From a virus (Duplodnaviria > Caudoviricetes): DNA of 48,511 nt. The DNA lies in the IMG/VR virus record IMGVR_UViG_3300033153_006068, positions 1 to 48,511 of that record; one strand, given 5' to 3'. This document shows positions 841 through 46,533 of the stretch, piece after piece. The position numbers were made by a program, and so were the translations under genes. The notes beneath the pieces were generated by a model. The model had not been told where the DNA came from. It did no database searches and saw nothing but the letters and a program-made list of their open reading frames with translations. Position 1 is the first letter of the stretch. Every line of letters begins with the position of its first letter.

Positions 841-1245
841 ATGGTAAAGCTCGATAGGAGCCGACCCTTTGGCGAGGTAATCGGTCACGGATGTCAGCGT
901 TATGAACAGAACGGTAAAGCGTTCAATGGTGCTGGTGAAGAGATTGATGCACAGGGCAAGCTGGTAGACGAAGCGCCACCAGCTCCCACTAATCCAGAGC
1001 CACCGGAGCCTACTGCTCCAGAGGCAACAGAAACTACCGACAGCGAGCCAAAAACTCCTGCCGAGCCAGAGGAGCCAACCATCGTTGCTGCTCGCTCTGA
1101 GCATCGTGGTGGTGGTTACTACAATGTATTCGACACCAAGGGCGACCTTGTTGGTGAAGACTTTAAGAAGGCCGAGGCTGAAGCCAAGGTGACTGAGCTG
1201 CAGGAAAATGCAGACCAGATCGCTGCAGCATTATCGGATGGCTGA
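841..1245 (+). CDS. Hypothetical structural-region protein with Pro/Glu/Thr-rich linker
   Basis: Strong RBS (AAGGAG); two small domains joined by PPAPTNPEPPEPTAPEAT. Confidence 0.65.
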   Translation: MVKLDRSRPFGEVIGHGCQRYEQNGKAFNGAGEEIDAQGKLVDEAPPAPTNPEPPEPTAPEATETTDSEPKTPAEPEEPTIVAARSEHRGGGYYNVFDTKGDLVGEDFKKAEAEAKVTELQENADQIAAALSDG

Positions 1246-1852
1246 GATAACAGGGTCGGCCCATGTTACCGCAGGCAATCACTTCGATGAGAAAGTACAG
1301 GCGATAAAGGAACAGGCTAAGGCTCCGACATCAGTCGTTGCCCCGGCCACCATCGCCTCTCTGGTAGAGATTGCAGAGTCAGCCCCCAAGCGGGGCTGCT
1401 TTGTTGAGGTGGGTGTCTATAAAGGCGGCACCGCATTTCATCTCGCACGAGTTGCTCGTGAGCAGGGACGCAGGATCTACCTGTTCGATACCTTCGAGGG
1501 CATCCCGTACACCGACAAAGAGATGGGTGACCGTCATGAGGTTGGCGACTTCAACGACGTTAAGATGGCCGACGTTGTTGCAGCTATTCCTGATGCAATC
1601 GTCGTTAAGGGCGTATTCCCCCAATCAATGATCCCGTTACCTCTAATAGCCTTCGTGCATATTGATGCTGACCAGTACGAGTCCATCTTCTTGGCAGTGA
1701 GAGCGTTGGAGCCGCACATGATGAAGGGCGGCATTATGGTATTTGATGACTGGGGTGCGCTTGAAGGGGCAACCAATGCGATCAAGGATCTGTTCGATGG
1801 CGACAGAATCGAGATCACTTCCGCAGGCAAGGCAATGGTGAGGTACCAGTAA
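1238..1852 (+). CDS. TylF/MycF/NovP-family sugar O-methyltransferase
   Basis: Motifs FVEVGVYKGG, LFDTFEG, KGVF, FVHIDADQYES, GGIMVFDDW; start placed at ATG 1238. Confidence 0.85.
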   Translation: MAEITGSAHVTAGNHFDEKVQAIKEQAKAPTSVVAPATIASLVEIAESAPKRGCFVEVGVYKGGTAFHLARVAREQGRRIYLFDTFEGIPYTDKEMGDRHEVGDFNDVKMADVVAAIPDAIVVKGVFPQSMIPLPLIAFVHIDADQYESIFLAVRALEPHMMKGGIMVFDDWGALEGATNAIKDLFDGDRIEITSAGKAMVRYQ

Positions 1853-3435: not shown

Positions 3436-4063
3436 GGTAGAGGATACCCAAAAGCCCTACCTTTGGTCTGACCCAGAGGTGATGGCCTACCTGAACGAAG
3501 CAGAAGTTGAGGCCTGTCGCAGGGCTCGACTTCTCGTCGATTCATCCACCGCTGCAGTTTGCCAGATCAGTATCACGGCTGATGAGCAGAACTTCGCACT
3601 CGACCCCCGGGTCATCATGATTCGTCGCGCCAAGCTGGCCGATGAGTCATACCCTCTCCAAAAGAAAAGCCAAGCCGCCCTCGATGATGAGTATCCCGCA
3701 TGGGATGGCGACGTTGCCAGCACCCCACAGTATTACTTCCTCGACTCCGGCAGCTCCAGCATAAGCCTCTATCCAAAGCATGACGCTACCGACACGCTGC
3801 ATCTCACCGTGGTCAGGGAACCCCTCAATGAGCTGAATGATGATGATGAGACTCCAGAGATCCCATCTCGCTATCACTTTGGCCTGCTCAACTGGATGAA
3901 GCACCGCGCCTACATGAAGCCCGACTCCGAGACCAAGAATGACCAGCTGGCTGTTCTCAATCTGCAATTATTCGAGCAGGAATTCGGTAAGCGTCGCACC
4001 GCACTCGATGAGAGATTCGAGGCTGAGCACGAGGGCTACGATATGGATCACGGAGCCTACTGA
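3398..4063 (+). CDS. Putative head-tail adaptor protein
   Basis: PYLWSDPEVMAYLNEAEVEACRR and EIPSRYHFGLLNWMKHRAYMKPD resemble phage adaptor families (DUF6682-like). Confidence 0.65.
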   Translation: MKVGKLIEIFRHEVEDTQKPYLWSDPEVMAYLNEAEVEACRRARLLVDSSTAAVCQISITADEQNFALDPRVIMIRRAKLADESYPLQKKSQAALDDEYPAWDGDVASTPQYYFLDSGSSSISLYPKHDATDTLHLTVVREPLNELNDDDETPEIPSRYHFGLLNWMKHRAYMKPDSETKNDQLAVLNLQLFEQEFGKRRTALDERFEAEHEGYDMDHGAY

Positions 4064-13119: not shown

Positions 13120-16100
13120 ATGCCTACCCACCCGCCCATCATTAGCTTACTTGGGTCTGAAGAGGAGGATAAGGAGCAGCAGCTGACACAACCGCTCGGA
13201 GAAGATACTCCGCAGGCTGCTGGCCCCATCTCATCTATTGCCAACCTCGCGCCGCAAGCAGGCGACGAGGAGCCCGGCATCATCCCATCCCTTGGCAAGG
13301 GCTTTGCTCATGGTGTTACCGGTCTGGCAGAGTCTGTTGGTACCGGTATCGAATACCTCGGCGGCAAATTCGACAACCAAGACATGATCGACCTCGGTGA
13401 TACCATCGAGTCGTACTGGCAAGACTTCAACGAAAAGAACTTCGAAGCCCACGAGTCTCTGCAGGGGTCTATCTACGACCGAGAGGATGGCTGGGATACC
13501 GAGCTACTCACCAAGGGCGCGTGGTGGGCTTACAACGTGGCCAGCATCATCCCCAGCTTCGCCGCCTCGATGATCCCGGGCGCAGCTGTCGCCAAGGGTG
13601 CCGCCGCTCTCAGTATCGGTGCGAAGGTGCTTAAGTGGACACCCTCCGTTGCTTCCAAGATGGGCCGCCTTGGCAGGTTCATGCCACACACCGCTGAAGC
13701 CGTTAATCGCGGCATCGGCGCTGCAGCTGGTGGTTTCACTGGAGGCACACTTGAGGGAGCCAATACCTACAATGAGGTAATGGAGAAAGGGGGTACACGC
13801 GAAGAGGCAGAGGCAGCCGCTGAGCAGATGACAGCCGCCACCATGGCGCTCAATATGCTGTCCATAAACCAGATGCTAAAGAAGATGCCGCCCGGGCTGC
13901 TTAGCAACGCCGCACGACGCATCGTCAACGGCCTCACCGAGGGTATTACCGAGTGGCTTGAGGGGCCAGCAGAAGCTGGCATCATGTTACGCGCAGCCGG
14001 TAAGGATGGGTCTGATATTCGATTCACCCCAGAGGAAGCGGTTAAGAAAATCTACGATGAACTAAATGTCCTGCCACCGTCAGTTATCACCGGCATGATG
14101 TTTGGTGGTGGTGGGCCAGCCAGCGTTGAGCAGGGTAGGGATAAAGGCCCACTCGGCACCGCTGCAGATAAGATAGCCGGCAAGATGCTACCACTTAGTG
14201 AGGATGGTGCAGTCCGTCGCGCTGAGATGCTCACAAGGCAAGGCCAGCCGCACAGCGTAGTACCCCACCCGCAGGCTACTGGTAAATTCGCCGTAGTGCC
14301 TATTGATGAGGATCTGTTTGCTGAGCAGGAGATGGCTGAGCAAGAGCCTACCGAGGTAACCACCAACAAGCAGGTTGATGACGCTGCCCATGAAGCTGCC
14401 ACCTCGCCAGAGAATGACCTCGAGGTCACGCAGGAGCAGCTGGAGTCCGGCGACTACCCAAAGGGTCGCTTCACTATGGGTGGCGATACCTTCTCTATCG
14501 AGAACCCAGAGGGCTCAATCCGCAAGGGTATTGATGAGACCGGTAAGGAGTGGGAGCAGGAGATCACCCATCACTACGGTGACTGGGACGGAACCATCGG
14601 AGCTGACGGTGACCCCATTGATGTCTTCTTTGGGCGTAACCCAAAGTCCAAAAAAGCCTTCGTGGTCAATCAGGTCAACCCAAATACCGGTGAGTTCGAT
14701 GAACATAAGGTGATGAGGGCATTTGACTCCAAGGAGGAGGCTGAGACTGCGTACCTATCGAACTACGAGGATGGCTGGCAGGGTCTCGGTAATATCGTTG
14801 AGGCGTCCGTTGAGGAGGTCAGGAAGTGGGCCGAGAGCGGAGACACCAGCAAGCCATTCACCCTTGGTGAGGGGGTCAAGAAGTTCGACATGGCTCCAGC
14901 GGAATGGACAAAAGAGTCCGTTGCTGTTGACGAAGGGGGTGAGCTTCTCACTATGTATCACGGCTCGAAGTCCACAGAACAGATCAATGAATTTGATCCT
15001 GAGATGGACTTCTTCGGCCAAGGATTTACATGGTTTACCCCATCAAAGCAGTACGCTAATCGTTACGCTATGCGTGGTTTCAAGGGTAGTGAGACCGGTA
15101 TTGCTGTCGGAAAGAAGAAGGGTCACGTTGTACCGGTAAACCTCAACATCAAGAACCCACTGTACGGAACATCAGACAAAGCGAGGCAGCTGAGGAGTGA
15201 GTTGCAAAATACAGACGCTAAGTTCAAGGACATCCTGCTACGCGAGGGATATGACGCATACATTCCATTCGAGAAGGAAGGCACCCCTATTAGCAAGGCA
15301 AACGAGGTTGCCATTCTCGATCAAACTGCCGTGTGGTCTACCAAGGCAGATCGGCAGATGCTCAAAAAATTCGACCAGAAAGGAGAGTATTCTGAAGTAC
15401 CGGAGCAGGCCGAGTCGGCCCCAGACTACCTATCCAAAACCGGACGCGATGGAGAGGTTAAGCGATTCGACTCCCATACCGAGTATGCTGGGCCTGAACC
15501 GATAAAGCTCGGGAAGAAAAAGAAAGACCCCAAGGCTGCCAAATTCAACAAGGACTTCGAGAAGCTCGGAGACCGCAATCCGTTCATGCCCAGTGAGATG
15601 GTCATCATGAACCCCGGGGGCGCTCACGAAGAGTCCGGTGCCGCCATCGAGGCCGGGGTGCGTTGGGGTGAGCTTCACATCGCATCCATCCGTTCCTTCC
15701 GTCGTGGCGAAGGCAATGCCTCCTACGCACTCAACAAGGTGCTGGAGCTGGCAGACAAGCACGGCCTAACGATCAACATGACTCCATCCCCATTTGGCAA
15801 GGGTACCAACCTCGAAGAGATGCCCGGTGGCAAGATGCTCACCAAGAAGCAACTCGAGAAGTGGTACGGTCGTCACGGTTTCGTGAAGGGTGACGAGCCC
15901 GGTAAATTCAGCCAGATGATTCGTGAGCCGCAGGGCAAGCTCAAAAAGTTCGATATGGCTCCGCCGGATGTAACCGAGGAGCCGTACCGCAACACAGATG
16001 GCAGCTACAGGAAGAACCAGAAGGGCGACATTACTGGAGCGCCAAAAGGCGTGAAGGATGATTCCGGTATTGCTGCCATCGTGATGAAGAATGTTAAACG

Positions 16101-19100
16101 CCTTATAGGTATGTATAAGGCTGACTCTGACCGAGCCAAGGCGTCAGCTAACTGGTACGAAGTTATTGGGGCAGAGCTAAGGAGATTGAGTAAAGACCCA
16201 GCAATACTCGAAAAAATGATACGAATGCTGGCCAGATTCTCAGCTAATGCACAGGTAGGGACAAACCTCACGTTCACCATGAAAGGAGCGTACCAACTCG
16301 TCCGTGGCGAGGAGGTCATGACCGGTAGATTCCCCAGCAAGATGCGCCCCGAAATAAAGGCCATTCTCGAAGCCGATGAATTTAATAAAAACTTAGCCGG
16401 CGTTAAAGACAAGGTGATGAATTTCTATCGCAACCTGTACGACGCCACCTTCCAGACAGATAAATATGAAGATGCCATCACTATGGATATGTGGATGGCC
16501 AAGCTGTACGAGTACAAAGCCAACGCAAAGAACGAATATAAGCTGGGTGATGCTCAGTACCGGTTCGCCAACATGCTAACCGATATGATCACCGCTGAGT
16601 TCAATAAGGAAACTGGCAGGTCATTGTCGCGTCGCCAGATACAGGCGGCTCTATGGGGTTTTGCTCGTGACGCCGAGGACTCGGCAAAGGGTAAGCGTCG
16701 GCGCAACATCCTCAGTTTCGCAACCTACATAAGGAGAGCGACAGCTCATATAACAGCTGAAGCTGTAACCTCTAAAAAAGCTCCGTTCTTCAGAACCATC
16801 CATAAGGCACCAATCGGTATCCGAAAGGCGTACACCAATGCCGCCATGGCGGTGACTATGGATGGAGAGAGAGACCTGCTGCTGGAGGCAATAGCTGGCA
16901 TACCCTTGTATGGCAGCGAGGACAGCATGGGAACCTTTGAGGAGTCGGTTAACCCCAACAGGGTCATCGACGTAGTGATGGACAAGGATGACGGCATTTA
17001 TAACCGCGATGACGTTAGCCTTTATGCGCTGGCTATGATGTATATCCATAGTCAGGATGCTGTGCCGTGGTTCAGGTTCACTACCGACGCCGCAATCATG
17101 AAGGTACCCACGGGTGGGAGCTGGTACCACGGGGTAACTATTGGGTTTACTGCGAAGCCGGATGCGGCAACAGTGGAATTGTTCTATACTCATCTGCGAG
17201 AGCATGTGCAAGGTGCAGAATTTTCCGTAATCGGCAATGATGCGGTAGTAGTCAATTATGGCAGGGTGAACAATAAGAAGTTCATCAAGGACATAAAGGA
17301 CGCCGCTGAGACATTTAACTTTGGAGGTATTAAAAATGGCTTCACAGAGATCACAAAAATCAAAGCAGAGAGCGAATACAACGGCATCAAAGAAGACTTC
17401 GGATCAAGCTGGGCAACCCCAGAAGAAGCGATTGCGATCCTTGAGCGTGAGATCCTCAAAAGAAACCGACCCGATATTCTCGAGCGAGTTCGCGGTTGGC
17501 GGGGTGATGTTGGAAAAGTCCAATCCCGATTCGAGCGAGGAGACCTCAAAAGCTACAAAGTAGCAGCTGGTGCTACAAAGAGCTTCAAAACCATCCTCTC
17601 TGAGCGTCGCGCAGCGCAGGCGAAGCTCGGGTATGTACTCGCTAATAATATGCGAGAGATGCCTCGGTTGCTGGAACAGAATGACTGGAAGCCGGCGATC
17701 ACCGACTACACCGACATTGGCGAGTCGGAACACCAACCATTCCTCCGTATGTACGAGGATGTCACCACGCGCACCAGTATAAATTACCTTGATTTTTCTA
17801 CTGAGACATATCGTCAAGCTGATACGGATGAGTCCAAGGTAATCACCGCAGCTATACGCGACCTGATGGACGTTGGCCTGCCAGCCCGGGCGCTACAGTT
17901 TGTTAAAGAGATCGGGATATTTGATGTTAATATCGACAACCCTACCGGAGCCTCATTCGTACCAATGCAAACGGTTCCCAATGTTGGTGAATTCGTTAAT
18001 AGCGTGTGGATAAACTCCAATACGATTGATGTGGTCATGAAGACAAAAGACCCAACAGCCTCCAAGGGGCTGCGCTCGCATTTAATACATGAAATAGGTC
18101 ATGCCATCGATGTTGGCTCAGACCCAGATAAACTAAGCCACACCAGAGACAGTCGCCTATTCCGCATCAACCCGTGGGGCTATCACCGTAAATTAGATTA
18201 CAGTAGCCCGATAGGGTACAAGCTGGTGTTCAAGGGTAAGCCGTTTGGGCCGGTAATGATGGAGGCCGTTGAGTTCTTCCAGTCAGACGAGGCTAAGCAA
18301 AACGGTATGCAGGATTTACTCGCCTACCCACTCGTCAGTCTATACAAGGGTGACGGTAACGGTACGCTCATGATTGGCTCAAAGGCCAAGATTGATGGCG
18401 AGCTTGTAGAAATCACTGAGACCTTTAGGGGGGAGCACCCGTTCCATGCTGCGAACTTTGAAGATCAGGTAACAGCCGAAGTATGGAGAATACAGGGCGA
18501 GCTATTCGCTCAACTCCACGACATCTTTTATACCATGCCAGAGGAGATGGCCAAACACCTCCCGAAAGGCTACGCACTAATGCAGGAGGTACAGAATGCC
18601 ACAGCTCAAGAAGCGACCCTTACTGGACTTAATCGAAGGCTACGAGAAATCCTTCGGACACCAAGTACCAAACTCAGCCCTAACTGGACTCAGCAACGAT
18701 TCTGGCCTACGAAGCCAGCTGACAAAAGCGTTGAAGGACAACGAGCCGGTGAAGGAGTGGAAGCAGCACAGCGAGTCGCCAGTGCAGTACCCGAGCAAGG
18801 CGTTACCGGTGAGCAAGGGGCTGAGCAGTGGGCAGGCGACACGGTCGTAAGAGATAAGGACGGCAGCCTGCTCGAGGTTTACCACGGCACCGATGCTGAC
18901 TTCGATGTAATGGAGGCTCGTGAGCCAGACACATTTGCCGGCAGCAAGAAAGACCTCAAGGGGATCTACTTCACTGCCGACTCAAGTAAAGCATACGCCT
19001 ACGCGAAGCCCAGCAAACGCAGGTCAGCTGGTGGCGCTAAACCGAAGGTAATCCGCGCTCACCTGAAGATACTCAAGCCGCTCAACATCACCGGCATGAT

Positions 19101-22100
19101 TAAGTATCGCCGGAAGCAAAAGGGCATGTCCTTTGGCGAGGCCAAACAGGATGCCATGCTGAAGTTCGACCCCGCTAAGTACGATGGTATCGTCTTCGAT
19201 GGTGATGCGTATAACTCGGCTGAGTACATCGTGTTCGACTCATCTCAGGTGAAATCAACTGATGGCGGTTACGACGCATCAACTCCGAATATCTGGAAAA
19301 CTCAGAACGTAAAGAACAGCCCTAGCTTTCGTAGCTGGTTCGGTAACTCCAAGGTCGTCGATAAGAACGGTGACCCGCTGGAGATATACCACGGCACCAC
19401 TCACGACTTTGATGAGTTTAGCACTACCTACGCGACCCCCGAGTCATACATGGGTGCCGGCTATTACTTCACCGACTCCGAGGAGGACGTCAACGCCAAT
19501 TACGCTGGCGAAGGGCCAGACTTAACCAATCGTATAGAGAGTGAAGCCGAGATGCTTCGCAACACCGATGACGCCCTAACTGACTTCATTGTCGAGCGAT
19601 ATGACCTCGAGTGGGATGAGGCTCAAAAGAAGCGCGAAAACATGGGTGCTGAGGAGATGGAGTGGTTCACTAAGGAACTCGCTAAGCAGCGACTTGGTGT
19701 TGAAAATCAAGGCACCGTCATGCCGGTGTTCGTCAAGATGGAGAATCCTGTAGAGATTGAGCCCAAGGGTGGCACTATGCTCATCGCTGAGTGGGATACT
19801 GACTACTACAAAGGCGACGGCATGGCCAAGGATGAGGTCGACATCGATGACTACACCGATGAGGACGGTGACATTGACGAAGGCGGATATAACGAAGCCA
19901 TCGAAGAGAAAGCTCGTGATATGTTCTTTGAGGACTACAACCCCGAGCTAACCGGTAACGCCGCAGATATGGGCAACATCATTAGGGCCGTCGCTTATGA
20001 GTATGGTGCCGATGGTGCTGCCCTACAGCAGAGCTTCATGGAAGAATTCGACTTCCCCTTCGGTATGGCGACTCGCGCCTACGACTTCTCGGAGTGGTTG
20101 CGTAGTCAGGAGGATCTCTACGACGCCGTTGACGATGAGGGCAACATCACCAGCAACGATATGCTGCGAGAGATATTCGAGCGCATGGGCTTCGATGGCG
20201 TCATTATGGATGCTGAGGCACACTTCGGCCCCCGCCAGATTAAAGGCGCTTACGGCAACGTGCTGGTACAGGGCATGGATGGGGTCTACGGCGCTAAGCA
20301 CTACGTCGCCTTCCATGGTGAGCAGATCAAGTCCTCCATCGGCAACACTGGAGACTACTCGCCCAATCCCAACATCACCATGTCCAACAAGGGCAAGAGC
20401 TTCGGTCGTGAAGCGGCTGCAGTACAGGCTGATGTCGATACCATTACCGAGGCGTGGAGCAACGCCCCGGACATCAAGACAATATCGCACCGCTCGATGC
20501 TGCCGCAGCGGCTGCAGAAGGAGGCGCTCCGTACCCGTGGCAGGGTAGAGGGTGTCTATGATAGTGAAACTAATACCGTTTACATGGTGGCTGATACGCT
20601 CCCGACTACCGCTGACGTACATCGTGTGCTGCTCCATGAGGTGTTTGGACACTGGGCGGTAGGTCAGGCTTACGGTAAGGACTTCGAGCCACTGCTGGAG
20701 CTGGTAGCCTCATCCTATGGCAATAAGCTGCAGGGTATCGCTGAGCGCCACGGGGTCTCCCTCACCACAAGAGAGGGCCGCCTCATCGCCGCACAGGAGC
20801 AGATGGCTGAGCTTGCCGAGCTGGGTACCAACCCCACTCTGCTCAACAAGCTGATACTGAAATTCAAGCAGATCCTCAACAACCTCGGCTTTAAGGTGAA
20901 GCTAACCAATGCCGACCTGAAGACCATCCTCGCTGCCGCCGGCACGATGGTGTACGAGGGCGATAGCGCCATTGCCTCTGGAAAGTTGGTGCCGGTATTC
21001 AGTCAGCAGTCCACGACCTTCTACAGCCAGATGCAGGAACACCTCGCGCAAAAGCTGCCAAACAAAGGCAAGGCCGGCCAGATGAAGCTAATGATCAACA
21101 ACATGGCCAAGAAGGGCCAATTCAAGAAGGAGGAGTTGGAGTGGTCAGGCGTTAACGAGTGGCTCGATGAGCAGACCGGTACCGTCACCAAGGATCAGGT
21201 GCTGGAGTTCCTGCGCGAGAACGCCATCGAGATCGAGGAGGTCACCCTTGGTGGCACCCCCATGGATGAAGACATCGATATGACCCTCAGTGTAGACACC
21301 TCTGAGGCCATTGTGTTTGATGGCGATACGGAAGGCCTTGCCACCTACGAGGCTGGTGATGGGTACATTTACGAGGCTCGGGGCAACCAAGACACTGGGT
21401 GGGCTTTGTACGATGAGCGCAGCAGGATTATATCCGACGAAGAGGGGCAGGTTATTGTTGATGACATCGATGACATGGAGCAGTACGCCCTCACCGAAAA
21501 CGCCAAGCGACTGCGTGAGTGGCATGGGGAGAAGGTCACCGACGATGCTGATGGCCCAGCGAAATTTGAGGGATATACCGAGAAGGGTGAGAAGTCTGGT
21601 TATCGTGAGCTGCTGCTGCGTATGCCGCCAAAGGATACCGAGACAGAAAGAAGGCCGGTCAGTCGCGCCGAAGGTGCCGAGATAATAAAGAACGGCGGCG
21701 AGCTGGATGCGTACTTTGCAGGCTCAAAAATGGTAACCGTGTCCAATCAGCATGGCTTCAATAGAATCTTGAAGCGCGAGGACATAACCGGACTGGAGCA
21801 TATCATTAAGCGGGGAAAGACCGCCGACCGATTTACCGGCGCTCACTACGATGAGCATAGCAACATCCTCGCCCATATCCGCTTTGATACCCGCACCGAC
21901 GCCGATGGCAAGAAGGTGCTGTTCATTGAGGAGGTGCAGAGCGATTGGCATCAGAAGGGGCGCGAGAAGGGGTATAAAAAGCCAGATAGCAACCTCCCAA
22001 CAAGCGCAGATGTGGTGAACGGCTACAACAAAGTGAAGCCCGTAATGAAGCAGGAGGACTACCTCGGGTTCGACGACTTACGCCAATCCATCGACGCGAT

Positions 22101-24912
22101 AATGATCCACGACGATTACGCCGAGCGGTGGGAAATATCTACCCCAGAGAACGCGGCTATTATTGCTGAATATAAGCGGTTAAGAATCGCCTACGAGGGA
22201 ACCGAGTCAACTCGCGGAACAAGGGAGCTGGTGGCCGACGCCCCCTTCAAAACCGGCTGGCCCATGCTGGCGATGAAGCGAATGATTCGTTACGCCGCTG
22301 AAAACAACTTCGACCGCATCGCGTGGACGACCGGTGAGCAGCAGGCTGACCGATACGACCTGAGTAAACAGGTTAGTTCTATCGAGGGAGCGAAGTACGG
22401 CGTAGGGAAGATACAGCTTACCATACGAGATCTCGAAGGTAGCAAGGTAGATATGAGGGTGTTTGAATCAGGTAATGATCCAGCCATTACTGAGTATATT
22501 GGCAAGGATTTGGCGAAAAAAATATCTGAAGAAAATGGTGTTGGTGAGTGGCGCGGCCTTGACCTCAAGGTCGGCGGCGAAGGCATGACCACCTTCTACG
22601 ACAAGATGCTCCCATCTATGGTCGGCAAGTACATCAAGAAGTGGGGCGGCAAGGTTGGTTCTACCACTATCGAAGCTGGCAATAAGGCACCAAGTTATGG
22701 GCTTCCTCCAATAGTCGAGTTTGAAGAGAATAGACTGGATGGCGAGAGTATTGGCGACTACACCAAGCGCATGAGGGAAACCGGTAAAACATCCGAGCAG
22801 CACAGCATCGATATGACCCCGCAAATGCGCGAGGCCGCGATGGATGGTCAGGTGCTGTTCTCAGCTACCGATGAGCAGGCCACCCGCACCATCAAACAGC
22901 AGTACGCCGACAGAGCAGACAAGATACTCAAGCCATTAAGGCAGGTCATGAGTCCAATCGGAAAGCTGCCATTCGGTAATAAGTACATCGGTATGCGACA
23001 AGGGGTTATGGGTAAGATTTCCAAGATAAATCAAGTGGTCAAACGCATCCACGACATCCTCAGCGAGCTGACCGGTGATGAGTTGGTGGCGACATATAAT
23101 TACCTGACCAAACGCAACGCCATCCCAGAGGGAATCCCAGACCGCGAGATTGTCATTAAGCGCGGTCGCGGCACCGGTCGGCTGCTACAGAAAGCTCAGG
23201 CCAAAAACCTGCGACGCGAAGTGATGGCCATCAAGAGGCTCATCAACGCCACCGGTAAAGAGCTGGTTGACCGAGGTCTAATTCCGCAGGAGAGCTATGA
23301 GCATTACGCTGATAAGTATCTGCCGCGCCTGTACCTCGCTCACCTACTGAAGGATGACGACTTCAACGCAGTGGTGGGCGGTCAAGGCAAGAAGGTGTCA
23401 CCCCTCGGGTACACCAAGGGACGCAACGAAGACCTCAGTGAGGTGTATCGCATCCTCAAGGGTGAGATCAAGAACCCAGCCTACCTCGCCAGCAAAACGG
23501 TCGGCACCAGCCTGCGCGACATCGCTATCCTCGACTTCCTTAATGAGATATCGAAGGTGAAGGAGTGGATACTCCCCAACCTCATGGTGGAGTGGAGTGG
23601 TTCCTATGTAAGTGCGGAATGGCTGAGGACAGAGGGCAACCGCATCCTTGGTCAGGCCCAGTATCAGGATGAGCGAGATGCCAAGGTGTCACGCATCATG
23701 GGTGCTGAGATGATAGAGAAGGGCCAGTGGGCGCTCGACCACGCCGGTTACGAGGGGAAAGACTACAACGACTACCGGCAGGTGCCGAATATGCCGCGCT
23801 ACGGCTCCCTGAAGGGCGTATGGGTGCGTCAGGAGATTTATGATGACCTGATAGGTGGTATCGGCGCAATACACGGAGACAGCTTCATGGAGAGCTTGCT
23901 CGGTAGTGGCGGCATCGGCACCAAGATCACCCAGCTATGGAAGATGTCGAAGGTTGCACTCAACCCACCATCACAGGTGCGTAACTTTGTCTCGAACCTG
24001 ATCATGGCCAGCCTTCATGGCGGCATACCCATGCACAAAATACCGGGCCTACTCCATCGCGCCTTCAAGGAGGTGAAGAACAACGGCAAATACTGGAGGT
24101 ACGCACAGCGTGAGGGCGTTGAATCGTCCACCTTCACCGCTAATGAGCTGTTCAGGATTGACCGCGACCTACTGAAGCTGAAGAAGCAGGCCGGTCAGCT
24201 CAGTACGTGGGAGAACATCCTGATGGTGGCCGGCGTCATCGGTGAGTATGCCGGTGATATGTACCAGTTCTCTGAGGCTATCGGTAAAACCATGATGATG
24301 ATCCATGGCATCGAGGTAAATAAACTCACACCACGAGAGGCTGCGGTGAAGGCAAACGACACCCTGTTCGACTACTCCTTTGTTGGTAAGAACGTGAAGT
24401 ACCTGCGTAATGCCCCGGTAGGTATGCCGTTCATCACCTTCTACTACAAGGCGCTACCGAACATGGTAGAGGTGGCGTTAAAGCACCCGCAGCGATTCGC
24501 CCCATATCTCATCATTCCGGCACTCATCGCACAGGCTATCGCCAAGAGCCACGATGTGGATGACGATGATGTCGAGGCACTGAAGGAGGCGCTACCAAAC
24601 TGGGTGCGCGAGAGGGGCGCAGCAACCATTCTGCCAGTAAAGGATGCGCGTGGTCGCTGGCAGGCGTTTGACTATGGCTACTTCCTGCCGTGGGGGATGT
24701 TCACTGATATTATTACTGATGTCTCTGAGGGGCATGTAGGTGAGGCCGTCAAAACCTCCGGCCTGTTCGGCCGAGCTTATCGTCGGACTGAAGACCGGCA
24801 AGGACAGCTTCACTGGTCGCAAGATTTATCACGATGGCGACCCAGCCCAAAAGCAGTTCACGGATATCATGACCTACCTGTGGCGCATGGCTATGCCTAC
24901 ATGGACAACTGA
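13120..24912 (+). CDS. Giant polyvalent protein (InPase, 3x ART-PolyVal, GNAT, 2x zincin, LPD-like domains); C-terminus continues in another frame
   Basis: IENPEGSIR..HYG..GADGDPIDVF (InPase); YHGS/YHGT...G.(W/Y)FT x3 (ART-PolyVal); RRGEGNAS...LEKWYGRHGF (GNAT); HEIGH and HEVFGH; FIEEVQSDWHQ. Confidence 0.85.
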   Translation: MPTHPPIISLLGSEEEDKEQQLTQPLGEDTPQAAGPISSIANLAPQAGDEEPGIIPSLGKGFAHGVTGLAESVGTGIEYLGGKFDNQDMIDLGDTIESYWQDFNEKNFEAHESLQGSIYDREDGWDTELLTKGAWWAYNVASIIPSFAASMIPGAAVAKGAAALSIGAKVLKWTPSVASKMGRLGRFMPHTAEAVNRGIGAAAGGFTGGTLEGANTYNEVMEKGGTREEAEAAAEQMTAATMALNMLSINQMLKKMPPGLLSNAARRIVNGLTEGITEWLEGPAEAGIMLRAAGKDGSDIRFTPEEAVKKIYDELNVLPPSVITGMMFGGGGPASVEQGRDKGPLGTAADKIAGKMLPLSEDGAVRRAEMLTRQGQPHSVVPHPQATGKFAVVPIDEDLFAEQEMAEQEPTEVTTNKQVDDAAHEAATSPENDLEVTQEQLESGDYPKGRFTMGGDTFSIENPEGSIRKGIDETGKEWEQEITHHYGDWDGTIGADGDPIDVFFGRNPKSKKAFVVNQVNPNTGEFDEHKVMRAFDSKEEAETAYLSNYEDGWQGLGNIVEASVEEVRKWAESGDTSKPFTLGEGVKKFDMAPAEWTKESVAVDEGGELLTMYHGSKSTEQINEFDPEMDFFGQGFTWFTPSKQYANRYAMRGFKGSETGIAVGKKKGHVVPVNLNIKNPLYGTSDKARQLRSELQNTDAKFKDILLREGYDAYIPFEKEGTPISKANEVAILDQTAVWSTKADRQMLKKFDQKGEYSEVPEQAESAPDYLSKTGRDGEVKRFDSHTEYAGPEPIKLGKKKKDPKAAKFNKDFEKLGDRNPFMPSEMVIMNPGGAHEESGAAIEAGVRWGELHIASIRSFRRGEGNASYALNKVLELADKHGLTINMTPSPFGKGTNLEEMPGGKMLTKKQLEKWYGRHGFVKGDEPGKFSQMIREPQGKLKKFDMAPPDVTEEPYRNTDGSYRKNQKGDITGAPKGVKDDSGIAAIVMKNVKRLIGMYKADSDRAKASANWYEVIGAELRRLSKDPAILEKMIRMLARFSANAQVGTNLTFTMKGAYQLVRGEEVMTGRFPSKMRPEIKAILEADEFNKNLAGVKDKVMNFYRNLYDATFQTDKYEDAITMDMWMAKLYEYKANAKNEYKLGDAQYRFANMLTDMITAEFNKETGRSLSRRQIQAALWGFARDAEDSAKGKRRRNILSFATYIRRATAHITAEAVTSKKAPFFRTIHKAPIGIRKAYTNAAMAVTMDGERDLLLEAIAGIPLYGSEDSMGTFEESVNPNRVIDVVMDKDDGIYNRDDVSLYALAMMYIHSQDAVPWFRFTTDAAIMKVPTGGSWYHGVTIGFTAKPDAATVELFYTHLREHVQGAEFSVIGNDAVVVNYGRVNNKKFIKDIKDAAETFNFGGIKNGFTEITKIKAESEYNGIKEDFGSSWATPEEAIAILEREILKRNRPDILERVRGWRGDVGKVQSRFERGDLKSYKVAAGATKSFKTILSERRAAQAKLGYVLANNMREMPRLLEQNDWKPAITDYTDIGESEHQPFLRMYEDVTTRTSINYLDFSTETYRQADTDESKVITAAIRDLMDVGLPARALQFVKEIGIFDVNIDNPTGASFVPMQTVPNVGEFVNSVWINSNTIDVVMKTKDPTASKGLRSHLIHEIGHAIDVGSDPDKLSHTRDSRLFRINPWGYHRKLDYSSPIGYKLVFKGKPFGPVMMEAVEFFQSDEAKQNGMQDLLAYPLVSLYKGDGNGTLMIGSKAKIDGELVEITETFRGEHPFHAANFEDQVTAEVWRIQGELFAQLHDIFYTMPEEMAKHLPKGYALMQEVQNATAQEATLTGLNRRLREILRTPSTKLSPNWTQQRFWPTKPADKSVEGQRAGEGVEAAQRVASAVPEQGVTGEQGAEQWAGDTVVRDKDGSLLEVYHGTDADFDVMEAREPDTFAGSKKDLKGIYFTADSSKAYAYAKPSKRRSAGGAKPKVIRAHLKILKPLNITGMIKYRRKQKGMSFGEAKQDAMLKFDPAKYDGIVFDGDAYNSAEYIVFDSSQVKSTDGGYDASTPNIWKTQNVKNSPSFRSWFGNSKVVDKNGDPLEIYHGTTHDFDEFSTTYATPESYMGAGYYFTDSEEDVNANYAGEGPDLTNRIESEAEMLRNTDDALTDFIVERYDLEWDEAQKKRENMGAEEMEWFTKELAKQRLGVENQGTVMPVFVKMENPVEIEPKGGTMLIAEWDTDYYKGDGMAKDEVDIDDYTDEDGDIDEGGYNEAIEEKARDMFFEDYNPELTGNAADMGNIIRAVAYEYGADGAALQQSFMEEFDFPFGMATRAYDFSEWLRSQEDLYDAVDDEGNITSNDMLREIFERMGFDGVIMDAEAHFGPRQIKGAYGNVLVQGMDGVYGAKHYVAFHGEQIKSSIGNTGDYSPNPNITMSNKGKSFGREAAAVQADVDTITEAWSNAPDIKTISHRSMLPQRLQKEALRTRGRVEGVYDSETNTVYMVADTLPTTADVHRVLLHEVFGHWAVGQAYGKDFEPLLELVASSYGNKLQGIAERHGVSLTTREGRLIAAQEQMAELAELGTNPTLLNKLILKFKQILNNLGFKVKLTNADLKTILAAAGTMVYEGDSAIASGKLVPVFSQQSTTFYSQMQEHLAQKLPNKGKAGQMKLMINNMAKKGQFKKEELEWSGVNEWLDEQTGTVTKDQVLEFLRENAIEIEEVTLGGTPMDEDIDMTLSVDTSEAIVFDGDTEGLATYEAGDGYIYEARGNQDTGWALYDERSRIISDEEGQVIVDDIDDMEQYALTENAKRLREWHGEKVTDDADGPAKFEGYTEKGEKSGYRELLLRMPPKDTETERRPVSRAEGAEIIKNGGELDAYFAGSKMVTVSNQHGFNRILKREDITGLEHIIKRGKTADRFTGAHYDEHSNILAHIRFDTRTDADGKKVLFIEEVQSDWHQKGREKGYKKPDSNLPTSADVVNGYNKVKPVMKQEDYLGFDDLRQSIDAIMIHDDYAERWEISTPENAAIIAEYKRLRIAYEGTESTRGTRELVADAPFKTGWPMLAMKRMIRYAAENNFDRIAWTTGEQQADRYDLSKQVSSIEGAKYGVGKIQLTIRDLEGSKVDMRVFESGNDPAITEYIGKDLAKKISEENGVGEWRGLDLKVGGEGMTTFYDKMLPSMVGKYIKKWGGKVGSTTIEAGNKAPSYGLPPIVEFEENRLDGESIGDYTKRMRETGKTSEQHSIDMTPQMREAAMDGQVLFSATDEQATRTIKQQYADRADKILKPLRQVMSPIGKLPFGNKYIGMRQGVMGKISKINQVVKRIHDILSELTGDELVATYNYLTKRNAIPEGIPDREIVIKRGRGTGRLLQKAQAKNLRREVMAIKRLINATGKELVDRGLIPQESYEHYADKYLPRLYLAHLLKDDDFNAVVGGQGKKVSPLGYTKGRNEDLSEVYRILKGEIKNPAYLASKTVGTSLRDIAILDFLNEISKVKEWILPNLMVEWSGSYVSAEWLRTEGNRILGQAQYQDERDAKVSRIMGAEMIEKGQWALDHAGYEGKDYNDYRQVPNMPRYGSLKGVWVRQEIYDDLIGGIGAIHGDSFMESLLGSGGIGTKITQLWKMSKVALNPPSQVRNFVSNLIMASLHGGIPMHKIPGLLHRAFKEVKNNGKYWRYAQREGVESSTFTANELFRIDRDLLKLKKQAGQLSTWENILMVAGVIGEYAGDMYQFSEAIGKTMMMIHGIEVNKLTPREAAVKANDTLFDYSFVGKNVKYLRNAPVGMPFITFYYKALPNMVEVALKHPQRFAPYLIIPALIAQAIAKSHDVDDDDVEALKEALPNWVRERGAATILPVKDARGRWQAFDYGYFLPWGMFTDIITDVSEGHVGEAVKTSGLFGRAYRRTEDRQGQLHWSQDLSRWRPSPKAVHGYHDLPVAHGYAYMDN

Positions 24913-42010: not shown

Positions 42011-42099
42011 TTCCCTCGACAGCTCATCAGCCCTCCCGACCTCGCCGCTGATGTAGTGCCTCTCGCCCAACCCATGTGGCGTTGTCAGAACAGGGGGAT
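42010..42099 (+). ncRNA. Candidate small structured RNA (three-way junction)
   Basis: Nested helices incl. CATCAGC/GCTGATG and GACAGC/GTTGTC in an intergenic gap before a terminator. Confidence 0.35.
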
Positions 42100-42101
42100 G
42101 A

Positions 42102-42130
42102 GAAGCCCCTTAATTGGGGCTTTTCTTTTT
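42102..42130 (+). terminator. Intrinsic terminator
   Basis: AAGCCCC-TTAATT-GGGGCTT followed by TTCTTTTT. Confidence 0.8.
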
Positions 42131-42141
42131 GGAGGATGAAA

Positions 42142-42468
42142 ATGTCAGATTGCAGGCACACCCACTACCACAATGGTCACTACATGACCGGCAAGAAGAT
42201 AGCTCGCATCACCAAGTCACGCAAAGGCAACAATATCTGCTGGATATCAGATCAGATCCCCACCTGCCAAGACTGCGGCGCTGACATCTCAGAACACGAC
42301 ATCCACGAGGTGCTGACCGCCGAGGAGTATGTGGAGATGCACTGCGTGACACCGGAACCGGAGAAAGAGAAGCGGGTGATCGGAAACGAGCGCATCAGGC
42401 AGGCGGAGCAAAAACTGAAGAACCACCAAGCCAAGGCGAAAGCAGTGGGACAGGAGAGTTTATTTTGA
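42142..42468 (+). CDS. Hypothetical Zn-binding protein
   Basis: GGAGG RBS before ATG 42142; CRH...CQDCG. Confidence 0.55.
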   Translation: MSDCRHTHYHNGHYMTGKKIARITKSRKGNNICWISDQIPTCQDCGADISEHDIHEVLTAEEYVEMHCVTPEPEKEKRVIGNERIRQAEQKLKNHQAKAKAVGQESLF

Positions 42469-42671
42469 GACATACCGTGCTGGCGATATGCACTGCCTAT
42501 GAGCAGGGGTACGGTCATGGCTACGACCAGCGCAACCTAAGCAACCCCTACGGCGATAAAACCTCCAATGCGTGGCAGGCATGGGACTACGGATACAGTG
42601 AGGGCAACCGGAAGCGTGTCGAGTACGACCTTAACGAAGCCGAGGATAGAACAAGTGGGCAGATGGAATAG
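42465..42671 (+). CDS. Second RMF/CrpP-fold-like small protein
   Basis: AGGAG RBS, TTG start; AYEQGYGHG...NPY...AWDYGY. Confidence 0.5.
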   Translation: MRHTVLAICTAYEQGYGHGYDQRNLSNPYGDKTSNAWQAWDYGYSEGNRKRVEYDLNEAEDRTSGQME

Positions 42672-42951
42672 AAGGGTGGACGACAACCAGCCAGACATAG
42701 TGAAGGCGCTCAGGGGCTGTGGCTGTAGCGTCGCCATTACCTCCAATCTTGGCGAGGGCTTCCCTGATATTGTGGTTGGCATCTGCGGGAAGAACTATCT
42801 GATTGAGATTAAAAATGGCGACTTGCCACCATCAGCCAGAAAGCTCACTGACGATGAGCGTGAATTCATGCAGGGGTGGTGCGGTCAGTACAGCATCATT
42901 GAGTCGGTCGGTGAGGCCATTAAGTTCGTGAGCGCAGTGAGGAAATTATGA
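42655..42951 (+). CDS. VRR-NUC-like PD-(D/E)XK nuclease (possible resolvase)
   Basis: [31 protein letters not shown]. Confidence 0.75.
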
Positions 42952-43421
42952 TTTTAGAGATAGGCAGTATTGCACCAGCATTAACGCAGCGCGAGCGCAG
43001 ACATGGTCGCACCGTTGTGATGACTAACGGGTGCTTCGATATTCTTCATGCCGGCCACATCTACAGCCTGAGAGAGGCCAAGGCACTCGGTGATGTGCTG
43101 GTGGTGGCGGTTAACTCAGATAGCTCGGTACGCAAGCTGAAGGGCGACACGCGACCCGTGGTGCGCCTTGCTGACCGCATGGCCGTCCTCGATGCACTGG
43201 AGATGGTGGACTACGTTGTGTCGTTTGGTGATGAGACACCGGAGCGCCTCATCTGTGAGGTGCTGCCGGATGTGCTGGCCAAGGGTGGTGACTACAAGGT
43301 GCATGAGATAGCTGGCCATCGTTGTGTGCAGGCCAATGGCGGGAGGGTTGTCATCATGCCGCTACTCGACGGTAAATCGACCACCAAGATGATAGAAAAG
43401 GTGGTTGAATTAAATAAGTGA
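42948..43421 (+). CDS. rfaE2: D-glycero-beta-D-manno-heptose 1-phosphate adenylyltransferase (HldE domain II / RfaE2 / HldC)
   Basis: [59 protein letters not shown]. Confidence 0.92.
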
Positions 43422-43427
43422 ATCCTG

Positions 43428-43456
43428 TTGCATGGCCTGTCGTGCGCTGCTATATT
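43428..43456 (+). promoter_or_regulatory. Sigma70-type promoter
   Basis: TTGCAT-17-TATATT with TGn. Confidence 0.65.
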
Positions 43457-43494
43457 GAAACCTGACTATATTAGAAGCCGGTTACGAGGTATTT

Positions 43495-43962
43495 ATGAGG
43501 CATAGGTGTCACAACCGCGAGTTCCCAGAGTTCACAGTCGTACAGGATGGGTGGGCCAACGCCAACGGAAAATTTGGTGACGGCATGTATCGAGTGCCAC
43601 ACATGGTGGAGATCCCATTCAAAGGTAGCCGCGAGTGCCACCAGTGGGATAAACCAGATGGGGCGATATACATAGGTGTCACCGACCCCGCTGGGTGTTA
43701 CGGGTGCAAGTGGGTGCCGCGCAACTACCATACCGAGGTGCGGCTGATAATGAAGGATGGCGACATCATCGATGGTATCAATGGTGATGACAGTACGTTT
43801 ATCTTGATGCACAACCCAGCAAAGGTAATGGAGGCATACTTCAGGATGGTAATGCCTAAGCAGGGTATCGATGACGACTGGCACCCGCTGGTGGTAGATA
43901 TGCCGTACCCACCTGAGAGTTGGAGAATTGGCGATACAGTTCAGTACAGGAGGAGGTGGTGA
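43495..43962 (+). CDS. Hypothetical protein
   Basis: GAGG RBS; Cys-containing N-half. Confidence 0.55.
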   Translation: MRHRCHNREFPEFTVVQDGWANANGKFGDGMYRVPHMVEIPFKGSRECHQWDKPDGAIYIGVTDPAGCYGCKWVPRNYHTEVRLIMKDGDIIDGINGDDSTFILMHNPAKVMEAYFRMVMPKQGIDDDWHPLVVDMPYPPESWRIGDTVQYRRRW

Positions 43963-44132
43963 TGGAGATTAAATGTAGGGACTGTGGCTGGGAGGGTGAC
44001 TGGGCCGACCTTAAACCAATCAAGTATGATGGTGGTCATATACCGGCCTGCCCAAAGTGTACCGGTATCAAATTTTCTGAGCAGATGGATATAGAAGACG
44101 ATGACGCAGGAACGGAAACACTACGAGACTGA
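43962..44132 (+). CDS. Small Zn-ribbon protein
   Basis: AGGAGG RBS; CRDCGWEG...CPKC. Confidence 0.65.
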   Translation: MEIKCRDCGWEGDWADLKPIKYDGGHIPACPKCTGIKFSEQMDIEDDDAGTETLRD

Positions 44133-44550
44133 GACCGACCGCCGCCGAGAGGATTGGGTGGCCAAGCGATTCGCACTGAAGACTGGCGTACTGCAGCACG
44201 AGCTGCCAGAGAACTCGCGCATCGACCGGCTGCTGACGGACAAGAATCACAAGCCACGCGGCTGGGCCGAGATTAAGTGTAGGACTCATGAGTGTGGTCA
44301 CTATGATACCTATGCAATCTCTGAGACAAAGTTTAAGACGATGCTGTGGATGAAGAAGGCCACCAATTTACCTGTAATGCTCGTGGTAGGGTTCATGGAC
44401 TTGGTTGCGTGGATAGATGTTACATCGCTCGGCGGGTTGCGTGTAGTGGAGGGAGGGAGGACTGACCGTGATGACCCACTCGATGTGGAGCGTGTGGTGC
44501 TGATACCGATCACCAAGTTTCACTACATCCATCCCGAGGAGGAGCTATGA
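44101..44550 (+). CDS. Putative PD-(D/E)XK-fold nuclease
   Basis: E...IDRLL...WAEIKCR. Confidence 0.55.
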   Translation: MTQERKHYETETDRRREDWVAKRFALKTGVLQHELPENSRIDRLLTDKNHKPRGWAEIKCRTHECGHYDTYAISETKFKTMLWMKKATNLPVMLVVGFMDLVAWIDVTSLGGLRVVEGGRTDRDDPLDVERVVLIPITKFHYIHPEEEL

Positions 44551-44741
44551 CAGAGCGGCATGAGGTTCAGGGGATGAGAGAGGCTGTAGGGGATGTTTTG
44601 CTTGAGGTAGTGTATGAGTCTGAAACCACGGGCGAAAGCGATGAGTTTAATTCAAAGATGGATGAAGCTGCCGCGCTCCTCAGTCTCGGAATCAGTAAGC
44701 TGAGGGAGGCCGAGAACATGCTTCCGCACACAGAGAGGTGA
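44547..44741 (+). CDS. Hypothetical protein
   Basis: GGAGGAG RBS, ATGA overlap. Confidence 0.6.
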   Translation: MTERHEVQGMREAVGDVLLEVVYESETTGESDEFNSKMDEAAALLSLGISKLREAENMLPHTER

Positions 44742-45070
44742 GTATGAACAGGCGAGGATTTTTAAAGTCGATAGTGGCTGTGGCGGTAGGCGCTACACTG
44801 CCAATGCGATCACAGGCTGAGACATTTATCGGTGTTGACCCAGCTGCTGGAGAAGATCACAGCGCAGTGATGCGGTCAGGTGAGATTGGTGAGTATGAGG
44901 GGTTCCGGTTTATCGAGACTACCAACACCAAGTCAGTAGGCCAGACATGGGATATCGACGGTGGCTACATACTGACGCAGCAGCAGGAGGATGAGCTACT
45001 GAAGCAGATGCACCCGGCCACCAAGTTCAATTACTTTGTTGCACTCGAAACATCGGGGCATGAGTCATGA
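44738..45070 (+). CDS. Twin-arginine (Tat) signal-bearing small protein
   Basis: NRRGFLK + hydrophobic SIVAVAVGATL + SQA cleavage-like site; start 44738 or 44744. Confidence 0.75.
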   Translation: MSMNRRGFLKSIVAVAVGATLPMRSQAETFIGVDPAAGEDHSAVMRSGEIGEYEGFRFIETTNTKSVGQTWDIDGGYILTQQQEDELLKQMHPATKFNYFVALETSGHES

Positions 45071-45381
45071 AAGAGCCGAAAGCGTTTGACCCCATGTGGC
45101 CGGAGGGGTTGCAGAGCGGGACAGCTTACCAAGTGCTGTGTGACGACAAGGGAAGGCAGGGTGGGTCTTGGTTAAATGTTTATATCTCCTGTGACGGTGA
45201 CGCTCACGTTGCCATGCAGGACTGGGAAAACATCAAGGAAGATCCAGATTCTCGGCCAGACCCATTCCCCAGTATTCGAGTACGCACCCTCGTGGGTGGT
45301 GGAAGAAACCACCGGACACATCAGGCGCTACTATGGCTTGCTGATGCGATACGACGCGACAACGAGGAAAATAACCGATGA
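45067..45381 (+). CDS. Hypothetical protein
   Basis: ATGA overlaps. Confidence 0.6.
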   Translation: MKEPKAFDPMWPEGLQSGTAYQVLCDDKGRQGGSWLNVYISCDGDAHVAMQDWENIKEDPDSRPDPFPSIRVRTLVGGGRNHRTHQALLWLADAIRRDNEENNR

Positions 45382-45566
45382 CGGCTGACCGCGACGAGAA
45401 GATAGCGACCCTAATCCATGGCTCGGTATCGAGCTTAGAGATAAACCTCACCAAGTATCTCGCTGAGAGTGATGAGGCTGAGATATCCCACTTACAACAG
45501 CGGCTGGCATCGTTAGAGTTCGAGGCAAGGCAGCTGGTTAGTCCAGAGGGGCAGAGTAGTGAGTGA
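45378..45566 (+). CDS. Hypothetical protein
   Basis: GAGG RBS, ATGA overlap. Confidence 0.55.
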   Translation: MTADRDEKIATLIHGSVSSLEINLTKYLAESDEAEISHLQQRLASLEFEARQLVSPEGQSSE

Positions 45567-45786
45567 CCTACCTATGCCGGTCAACGCGTCATTCAATGAG
45601 TCAACTGCCGATTACGGCAGGATGCTCATGATTGAGTACAGCGTTAGGATTGGTAGCTATTACTATAGTCATGGGTTGTCGATGTCCGGCGTTGATGGTG
45701 CAGAGGGGGCGTTCAGGGCGCGTCACATCGAAGCACTGAGAGGGCGACACCTCTGGGATTTTTGGCGCTACCTTGGGGCAGCGTAG
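45559..45786 (+). CDS. Hypothetical protein
   Basis: Tiles operon. Confidence 0.5.
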   Translation: MSDLPMPVNASFNESTADYGRMLMIEYSVRIGSYYYSHGLSMSGVDGAEGAFRARHIEALRGRHLWDFWRYLGAA

Positions 45787-45798
45787 ACTGCATCAATT

Positions 45799-45807
45799 TG
45801 ATATAAT
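45799..45807 (+). promoter_or_regulatory. Extended -10 element upstream of TerS
   Basis: TGATATAAT in an intergenic gap; no good -35. Confidence 0.45.
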
Positions 45808-45831: not shown

Positions 45832-46533
45832 ATGGCTACCCGAAGGAAGGGCGCGGTCAAGAAAGTAGCCACCAAAAAAGTGGTGAAGAAGACGGCGAAG
45901 AAGAAGGCACTGGTCAAGAGGCGACCAAGGGCTTTGACAGTAAAGCAGATAGAGAAGCGCGTAGCTGACAAGATGACCATGCTCAGGGTGATGCACGACC
46001 TTGATGAGGAGCTGGACGACTTTAGGCTCAATGTTGCCCAGACACTACTGCGGGAGCATGTGTTCTCCAAGTACGAGGACATTACTGATGCTCTGGCAAG
46101 GGAGGTAGAGATACCACTCACCGGTAGACAGCCCATCTACCAGCCCGAGTGGATGCTACAGGTCACACTGGCACTGATGGCTGCAGGGGCCAGCATCATA
46201 GAGCTGGCAGCCACGATAGGGATAAACAGGGATACACTGAATGAGTGGACGAAGCAGGATTCGGATTACTTCAAGCCAATCTTTTCCGACACCATAAAAT
46301 TGGGTACTGATTTATCACATGGTTGGTGGGAGCGAACAGGCAGGAAGAATATAGGCAACAAGGACTTCAGTTACACCGGCTGGTACATGAACATGAAGAA
46401 CAGATTTGGGTGGAAGGATAAGGCGGAAATGGCACCCGCACTCCCGAATCACACAACACCAGAGGAGCGAGTGATTGAAGGCTCCGATTGGATAGAGGTC
46501 GAGGCGAAGATGAAAAAACTAGATCAGAAGTAG
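45832..46533 (+). CDS. Terminase small subunit (putative)
   Basis: GRQPIY, GASIIELAATIGINRDTLNEW (HTH), GWWE..GR, WYMNMKNRFGWKDK; Lys-rich N-terminal extension. Confidence 0.7.
   Translation: MATRRKGAVKKVATKKVVKKTAKKKALVKRRPRALTVKQIEKRVADKMTMLRVMHDLDEELDDFRLNVAQTLLREHVFSKYEDITDALAREVEIPLTGRQPIYQPEWMLQVTLALMAAGASIIELAATIGINRDTLNEWTKQDSDYFKPIFSDTIKLGTDLSHGWWERTGRKNIGNKDFSYTGWYMNMKNRFGWKDKAEMAPALPNHTTPEERVIEGSDWIEVEAKMKKLDQK

Follow-up and report, generated by a model that had tools for sequence, protein, structure and literature searches.

A phage mini-protein with a Tat-type leader and a mature part apparently pieced together from capsid and probable terminase motifs

The mini-protein gene and its contig

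The window, i.e., the whole stretch of DNA analyzed here, is an entire virus contig of 48.5 kb (48,511 nucleotides). Inside a run of same-strand genes on its plus strand, an ORF at 44738–45070 had been reported by the initial annotation to encode a small protein with three motifs, and both the ORF and the motifs were found at the residues given there. Translation yields 110 amino acids (aa) from GTG 44738 and 108 aa from ATG 44744. Judging from the sequence, the ATG, which lies 5 nt 3′ of a GAGG, is the likelier start codon, giving a gene at 44744–45070 (+); database entry P0002 is the same 108-aa protein. Residue numbers below follow the 110-aa count from GTG 44738. The gene overlaps the start of the next gene and is separated by 2 nt from the stop of the previous one, so it was considered part of an operon; no sigma-70-like promoter was found on the plus strand from 42011 to 45803. 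In the database clustering, it is a singleton at 90% identity.

The protein begins with a twin-arginine leader (44744–44818, +) composed of N-RRGFLK, the hydrophobic stretch SIVAVAVGATL, a basic residue, and an S-Q-A cleavage site, the last being a prediction read off the sequence. This had been described as a canonical Tat signal. The twin-arginine consensus, the hydrophobic stretch, and the predicted S-Q-A site are all present, but the leader scores below both curated cut-offs, with 19.6 bits against PF10518 (E 8.5e-4; cut-off 22.7) and 12.4 bits against TIGR01409 (cut-off 16.7). The leader of a relative, P0005, exceeds both cut-offs, and that of a second relative, P0007, exceeds the TIGR01409 cut-off only. 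From these features, we infer that the mini-protein is a Tat substrate.

The contig is that of a podovirus related to AP1, KPP25, and F116 by its head-closure and adaptor genes, and the head-closure gene had no close relative in viral contigs. The gene of the terminase small subunit (45832–46533, +; phrog_309, E 1e-8) lies 762 bp downstream of the mini-protein gene; the N-terminus of its product is extended by a lysine-rich stretch resembling histone H1 (NF038053, E 0.19). A scan of 54 window proteins gave no match to a large terminase, portal, or capsid, so these three genes were taken to be absent from the contig, and no integrase was found. The genes expected to follow the missing capsid gene are located at 841–4063 (+), where four genes show 34–49% identity to homologues downstream of PTXU04-like capsids in L256, L258, L259, and L260. 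The adaptor also matches AP1, F116, and KPP25, phages with phrog_334 capsids.

A stand-alone heptose 1-phosphate adenylyltransferase (RfaE domain II; 42948–43421, +) scored 200 bits against TIGR02199, above the cut-off, and the presence of this domain suggests a Gram-negative host. Together with nearby methyltransferases, it may serve in surface-sugar or virion modification. TylF-like and other methyltransferase genes also occur within the structural module (1208–3435, +), and their homologues stand behind the capsid gene in L258, L259, and L260. A 3,930-aa protein (13120–24912, +) has a DarB-like or internal virion region, with PHROG matches at aa 394–582.

Composition and relatives of the mature part

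Three pieces span aa 29–105, i.e., 77 of the 83 mature residues. Piece 2 (aa 42–67; 44861–44938, +) is a copy of positions 218–243 of the PTXU04-like/N4-gp56 capsid and corresponds to its GEIG...RF.E.TN hairpin. The N4-gp56-type capsid motif proposed for this region was borne out by matches to the phrog_1357 major head protein (E 6e-4) and TIGR04387 (E 0.02). When the mini-protein was searched against 50,697 phage records using tblastn, all 24 matches fell within aa 45–90, and 21 of them were annotated capsid genes. Two viral-contig loci matching piece 2 are likewise capsid-like ORFs, with 64–67% identity over 23–24 residues. The piece contains five invariant or near-invariant capsid columns; when 12 windows of the capsid were ranked by conservation, piece 2 came second and piece 3 fifth (middling).

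Piece 3 (aa 68–105; 44939–45052, +) is a copy of the N-terminal arm (positions 3–42) of the PTXU04-like capsid family, scoring 10.2 bits on the capsid profile in the window protein and 28.1 bits in P0005. All 32 records found by tblastn with P0005 match at aa 50–84/90, its C-terminal part, and the functionally named ones are capsids. In pairwise alignments, this part of P0005 aligns to residues 3–37 of the PTXU04 capsid (E 1e-8), and piece 2 aligns to residues 225–250 of the same capsid. A profile of 15 capsids of the family matched the mini-protein first with positions 218–243 (18.4 bits) and then with positions 3–42 (10.2 bits), the reverse of their order in the parent capsid. The total of 28.8 bits was reached by none of 950 background small ORFs, the best of which scored 7.3 bits.

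Piece 3 had been likened to HK97-type capsids. A direct HK97-family origin was rejected: no HK97-type model in PHROGs, NCBIfam, or Pfam, including PF05065 and TIGR01554, matched the piece at E ≤ 10, and the PTXU04-like family is closer. PF05065 aligns to the parent PTXU04-like capsid from residue 12, so the GGY resemblance reflects distant homology, but the closest parent is the N-terminus of the PTXU04-like capsid. The predicted model of one member of this capsid family (pLDDT 70) matches HK97-fold capsids, and in this model piece 3 falls on the N-terminal arm and piece 2 on a hairpin of two strands. The mini-protein shares positions 3–42 and 218–243 with the family (phrog_1357, TIGR04387, and PF25209), the hairpin reaching 61–67% identity. 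A full-length capsid has about 320 residues and an HK97 fold, whereas the mini-protein has 108 aa, scores 14.2 of 60 bits on TIGR04387, and holds only about 65 of the 320 residues, in reversed order and without the spine helix or E-loop; therefore, it cannot form a capsid. Capsids of phrog_334 (the F116/AP1/KPP25 type) were rejected as parents, as they did not match the pieces at E ≤ 5. As the capsid and terminase genes of this phage are missing from the contig, self-origin can only be inferred; on balance, we lean toward the phage's own missing capsid as the source of the pieces. In L266 (6471–7936, +), a PTXU04-like capsid gene appears to be split by an inserted ORF, its C-terminal 196 aa forming a separate ORF.

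Piece 1 (aa 29–45; 44822–44872, +) resembles the first strand of the terminase nuclease with its catalytic Asp. Against a profile of this strand built from 64 terminases, it scored 9.1 bits (P0005, 10.0; P0007, 1.1), a score reached by none of 950 background and none of 56 control ORFs, with a narrow margin over the top background score of 8.8. Its best local BLAST matches were terminases (E 0.012); the local terminases had been gathered by transitive BLAST from annotated seeds. No library model matched at E ≤ 10, and a full-length profile of six PTXU04-like terminases gave only 0.8 bits. Piece 1 would share the first strand, with hGhD, and a downstream D-x-S/T pattern with the RNase H-like nuclease of large terminases. 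In contrast to a large terminase with its complete RNase H-like domain and ATPase, it comprises 17 residues without the other catalytic residues or an ATPase, and the match is narrow. The earlier assignment to the terminase RNase H motif thus stands above the background, but closely and without a library match, and a copy of the terminase nuclease strand remains the likely identity of the piece.

In the profile comparison suggested for the segments, none of the 950 background ORFs reached the 28.8 bits of the capsid pieces or the 9.1 bits of piece 1. Among 400 other small ORFs of the window, none clearly carried a piece of a capsid or terminase, with 9.7 and 6.1 bits as the next highest scores. 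By these comparisons, the patchwork character of the mature part, made of capsid motifs and probably terminase motifs, exceeds what chance would give. The string of motifs had been attributed to terminase and two capsid families; the patchwork holds, but pieces 2 and 3 share one parent family, so the protein would mimic two targets, namely terminase and a single capsid family that is probably the phage's own, rather than being a three-family array.

The mature part alone was searched against 1.84 billion representatives, which gave eight matches: the query, two relatives (P0005 and P0007), and five others, which are long multi-stretch proteins and were taken as chance matches. Both true relatives begin with twin-arginine leaders, and since they were found with the mature part alone, the coupling of leader and mature part is not circular. 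P0005 is without piece 2, and P0007 keeps a version of piece 2 with a degenerate piece 3; as the two lack different modules, the modules have been gained and lost independently. The motifs are retained in three relatives at 47–50% identity. Protein searches with a word index returned the query only, or the three known members only. An alignment of the three members gave leader-only matches in viral contigs and, in metagenomes (9 of 64 parts covered), L269, which was rejected as a false match. Searches with P0007 and L028 found no cultured phage with a relative; hence, we know of no carrier in culture. Sequence searches of the PDB gave leader or chance matches only; the ESM Atlas gave no usable feature match, and the query had no structure match at TM 0.5. 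The AlphaFold prediction of the mini-protein, from an alignment of only three sequences, had a pLDDT of 36.5 and no confident fold.

Other phage mini-proteins with Tat-type leaders

A wider sample was collected with the DNA pattern MNRRGF(L/F), which gave at least 121 loci in the 40 of 64 parts scanned. Of 114 distinct ORFs, 98 with at least 50 aa and a hydrophobic stretch were kept and 16 were dropped; the controls were 56 adjacent small ORFs, taken from the longer loci only. Structural PHROG matches (head, connector, or tail) at E ≤ 0.05 occurred in 15 of 98 ORFs vs. 0 of 56 controls (Fisher p = 0.001), and at E ≤ 0.5 in 23 of 98 vs. 2 of 56 (Fisher p = 0.001); without two possible true tail genes, the first comparison became 13 of 98 vs. 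0 of 56 (p = 0.002). The remaining 75 of 98 had no structural match even at E ≤ 0.5. The matches are short pieces of much longer profiles, and the parents include capsid, portal, terminase, and tail proteins, with portal and terminase mixed in L048 and portal and capsid in L101. Named replication families were nearly absent, with one secondary helicase match.

The second sample, collected with the pattern MNRREF, consisted of 51 loci and 43 distinct ORFs, of which 20 were kept and 23 dropped. Here, none of the 20 ORFs had a structural PHROG match at E ≤ 0.05, and a single one did at E ≤ 0.5; the 12 controls had none. When 85 local capsids and terminases served as the comparison set, matches were found for 1 of 20 second-sample ORFs, 1 of the 81 first-sample ORFs that had played no part in building this set, and 8 of 950 background ORFs, among which were real capsid pieces; none of the 68 controls matched. 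The enrichment of structural motifs anticipated for phage Tat small proteins was therefore seen in the first sample but not in the second; fragment-bearing members are a detectable minority, and their fraction is unsettled (15/98 vs. 0/20).

The origin of the pieces was examined in 17 genomes that were picked by eye for visible motifs and hence are not an unbiased sample. The best match was the genome's own capsid in six of these, and in two further genomes the own capsid, of the P22-coat family, was matched but not ranked first; in the other nine, there was no own-genome match at E ≤ 1. Over 374 codons (11 alignments, 8 genes), the comparison with own capsids gave a pooled pS of 0.66 and pN of 0.36, where the alignments were chosen by protein similarity, which lowers pN. 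In L050, amino-acid identity is 78% and third-position identity 31% (pS 0.92, pN 0.19). The copies are 39–78% identical to own capsids, and the longest exact DNA match was 8–11 nt in all nine pairs. Since amino acids are kept while silent sites saturate, these values argue for copies that are old and constrained as protein in these other family members. In 11 of the 17 genomes, positions were obtained for a terminase as well as for a complete Tat ORF; the two were always on the same strand, with the Tat ORF upstream by 0.4–11.6 kb in 10 and directly downstream in one.

Possible roles of the mini-protein

The leader shares RRxFLK, a hydrophobic stretch, and a predicted AxA-type cleavage site with known Tat signals (PF10518 and TIGR01409), including those of hitchhiker export systems such as HybOC and PaoABC, as described in PMC4273604, where a signal-bearing protein used as bait can carry a partner. 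The known passengers are folded host enzymes, whereas here we have a phage-encoded string of fragments (pLDDT 36.5, from three sequences). In the T4 Gol peptide, which acts with Lit and EF-Tu, a short conserved capsid peptide is reported to suffice for host-protein recognition (PMC3014915); however, Gol lies inside the capsid protein and triggers defense, whereas the mini-protein is a separate gene product with an export leader and derives from another capsid family. The EVADES catalogue of 268 proteins (10.1101/2025.06.06.658234) likewise includes mimicry of a recognized molecule as counter-defense, but the mimics described in its main text copy DNA or antitoxins, not capsid pieces behind an export leader; that main text, without supplements, contains neither "capsid" nor "signal peptide." A literature search, mostly at the level of abstracts and without supplements, found no account of phage proteins that combine a Tat leader with capsid or terminase pieces, and by term search a 2026 Tat review and a November 2026 counter-defense editorial (PMC13728456) made no mention of them. 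This agrees with the initial annotation, which knew of no such system. The combination of an export leader with reshuffled virion and packaging pieces, kept at the protein level, matches no system found, and the architecture is real, modular, apparently undescribed, and new as a design.

Our tentative proposal is that the mini-protein may be a bait that binds motif-reading host proteins, which would be removed by tethering or co-export via Tat. The capsid and terminase pieces would bind host sensors that read short or unfolded motifs of structural proteins, and the bound sensors would be tethered at, or carried through, the Tat translocase. This modifies the bait array suggested earlier: the patchwork of capsid and probable terminase pieces is retained, but with two targets rather than three families. 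The bait had also been placed before the late proteins; in 10 of 11 genomes, the packaging genes lie a short way downstream on the same strand, a setting that suggests timing together with the late genes or shortly ahead of them rather than early expression. The leader would take a bound sensor–effector away from its cytoplasmic target, so a mimic of a defense trigger need not be suicidal; against the bait, such a mimic could set off defense before its removal.

Published accounts bear on which sensors would be suitable. Late proteins are monitored by sensors (PMC13581612), and the parents across the Tat mini-protein family overlap with these. Avs7/8/10 wrap the whole capsid fold through broad interfaces (PMC13581612), which makes them unlikely targets of pieces of 25–40 residues. 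CapRel is reported to contact the spine helix and P-domain of the folded capsid (PMC9712102), surfaces that the mini-protein pieces do not rebuild, and the Discussion of PMC13581612 has Lit and CapRel reading short capsid motifs. Gol is a 29-residue stretch, the most conserved piece of gp23 (PMC3014915), Upx is modeled on terminase strands in an unfolded state, and Avs2 holds a nuclease helix of 11 residues (PMC13601566). Motif-reading or unfolded-state sensors would thus fit the pieces better than Avs7/8/10. Tat is reported to carry signal-less partners, and engineered Tat baits export theirs (PMC4273604); exposed hydrophobic stretches stall Tat (PMC13673990).

A bait of this kind would be a new route to defeat immunity, relocating a sensor rather than inhibiting it, and the copied pieces would indicate which epitopes are recognized by as yet unknown sensors and could be used directly as baits in pull-downs. 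If sensors are exported, the family would be a natural map of the short phage motifs that bacterial sensors read. The capsid family includes the cultured Escherichia coli phage PTXU04, so tests are feasible in laboratory strains. The broader idea is counter-defense by export: phages would place modular arrays of those of their own motifs that are most visible to immunity (capsid, portal, terminase, and tail) after a Tat leader, and the host's exporter of folded proteins would deport bound sensors from the cytoplasm. This is more doubtful than the bait itself.

The pieces might instead bind unassembled capsid or terminase subunits that Tat then removes, either blocking related superinfecting phages or timing the phage's own assembly; we consider this unlikely. 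The N-terminal arm is an inter-subunit element in the HK97 fold, and piece 3 corresponds to this arm in a protein with that fold. The two capsid pieces have one parent family, the genes adjoin packaging genes, and the copies have diverged enough (39–78% identity to own capsids) that they could favor relatives over self. However, a phage that makes copies of motifs from its own family near the late genes risks self-poisoning. Neither of the other two pieces is an obvious subunit contact, since piece 2 is predicted to be a hairpin within the folded subunit and piece 1 is a catalytic strand. Across the family, the parents extend from capsid to tail proteins. The absence of an integrase among the 54 window proteins gives no sign of a lysogen to protect. 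Were the protein an assembly inhibitor, it would still be an undescribed anti-phage design.

Free export followed by action in the periplasm or outside the cell is rather improbable, whether the protein then served as a decoy for envelope-located sensors or proteases or as a signal specific to the lineage. Terminase, a cytoplasmic enzyme, does not occur in the envelope, yet terminase motifs recur (L048, L086, P0002, and P0005). Such export would agree with a leader that is predicted to be cleavable and leaves no anchor, with the outer-virion tail pieces carried by several family members, and with the reported acceptance of small unfolded substrates by Tat (PMC13673990).

We consider it similarly improbable that the leader is the working part, through TatBC occupancy or membrane anchoring, with a mature part that is filler from neighboring late genes. 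The leaders are alike while the mature parts are mostly unrelated, most members have no recognizable piece, and the genes are close to donor genes; however, amino acids are kept while silent sites saturate, and in-frame preservation of invariant capsid residues, or tiling of the mature part, would be surprising in filler. Neutral recombination debris is very improbable, as is a decoy that works at the DNA level (for example, a spare protospacer): the gene is a singleton and short duplications are frequent in phages, but the frame is open with a ribosome-binding site, its motifs persist in three diverged relatives, and the decoy was rejected because exact DNA matches to own capsids extend to only 8–11 nt.

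Several variants were observed within and beside the family. Several recurring motifs after the leader mark subfamilies in L003–L123 (for example, APAIVRA.SLM, DPERLLWVPG, LGRVWSFP, and LAPKRTIFLPP.GGW), and some members there have no obvious cleavage site. In L309 (1–720, −), a twin-arginine-like leader is in frame with an ORF of at least 240 aa that by eye resembles a whole terminase nuclease domain; its best match was phrog_27743, of unknown function (E 4e-12), with no Pfam match. Two Tat mini-genes lie near each other in L130 (G013, 36175 and 36744, − strand) and in L017, and one of the two in G013 has, by eye, a P22-coat-like N-terminal piece. Finally, a small non-Tat ORF in L144 (1997–2359, +) matches the C-terminal region of its own capsid over 19 residues (E 2e-4) and is possibly a leaderless capsid piece.
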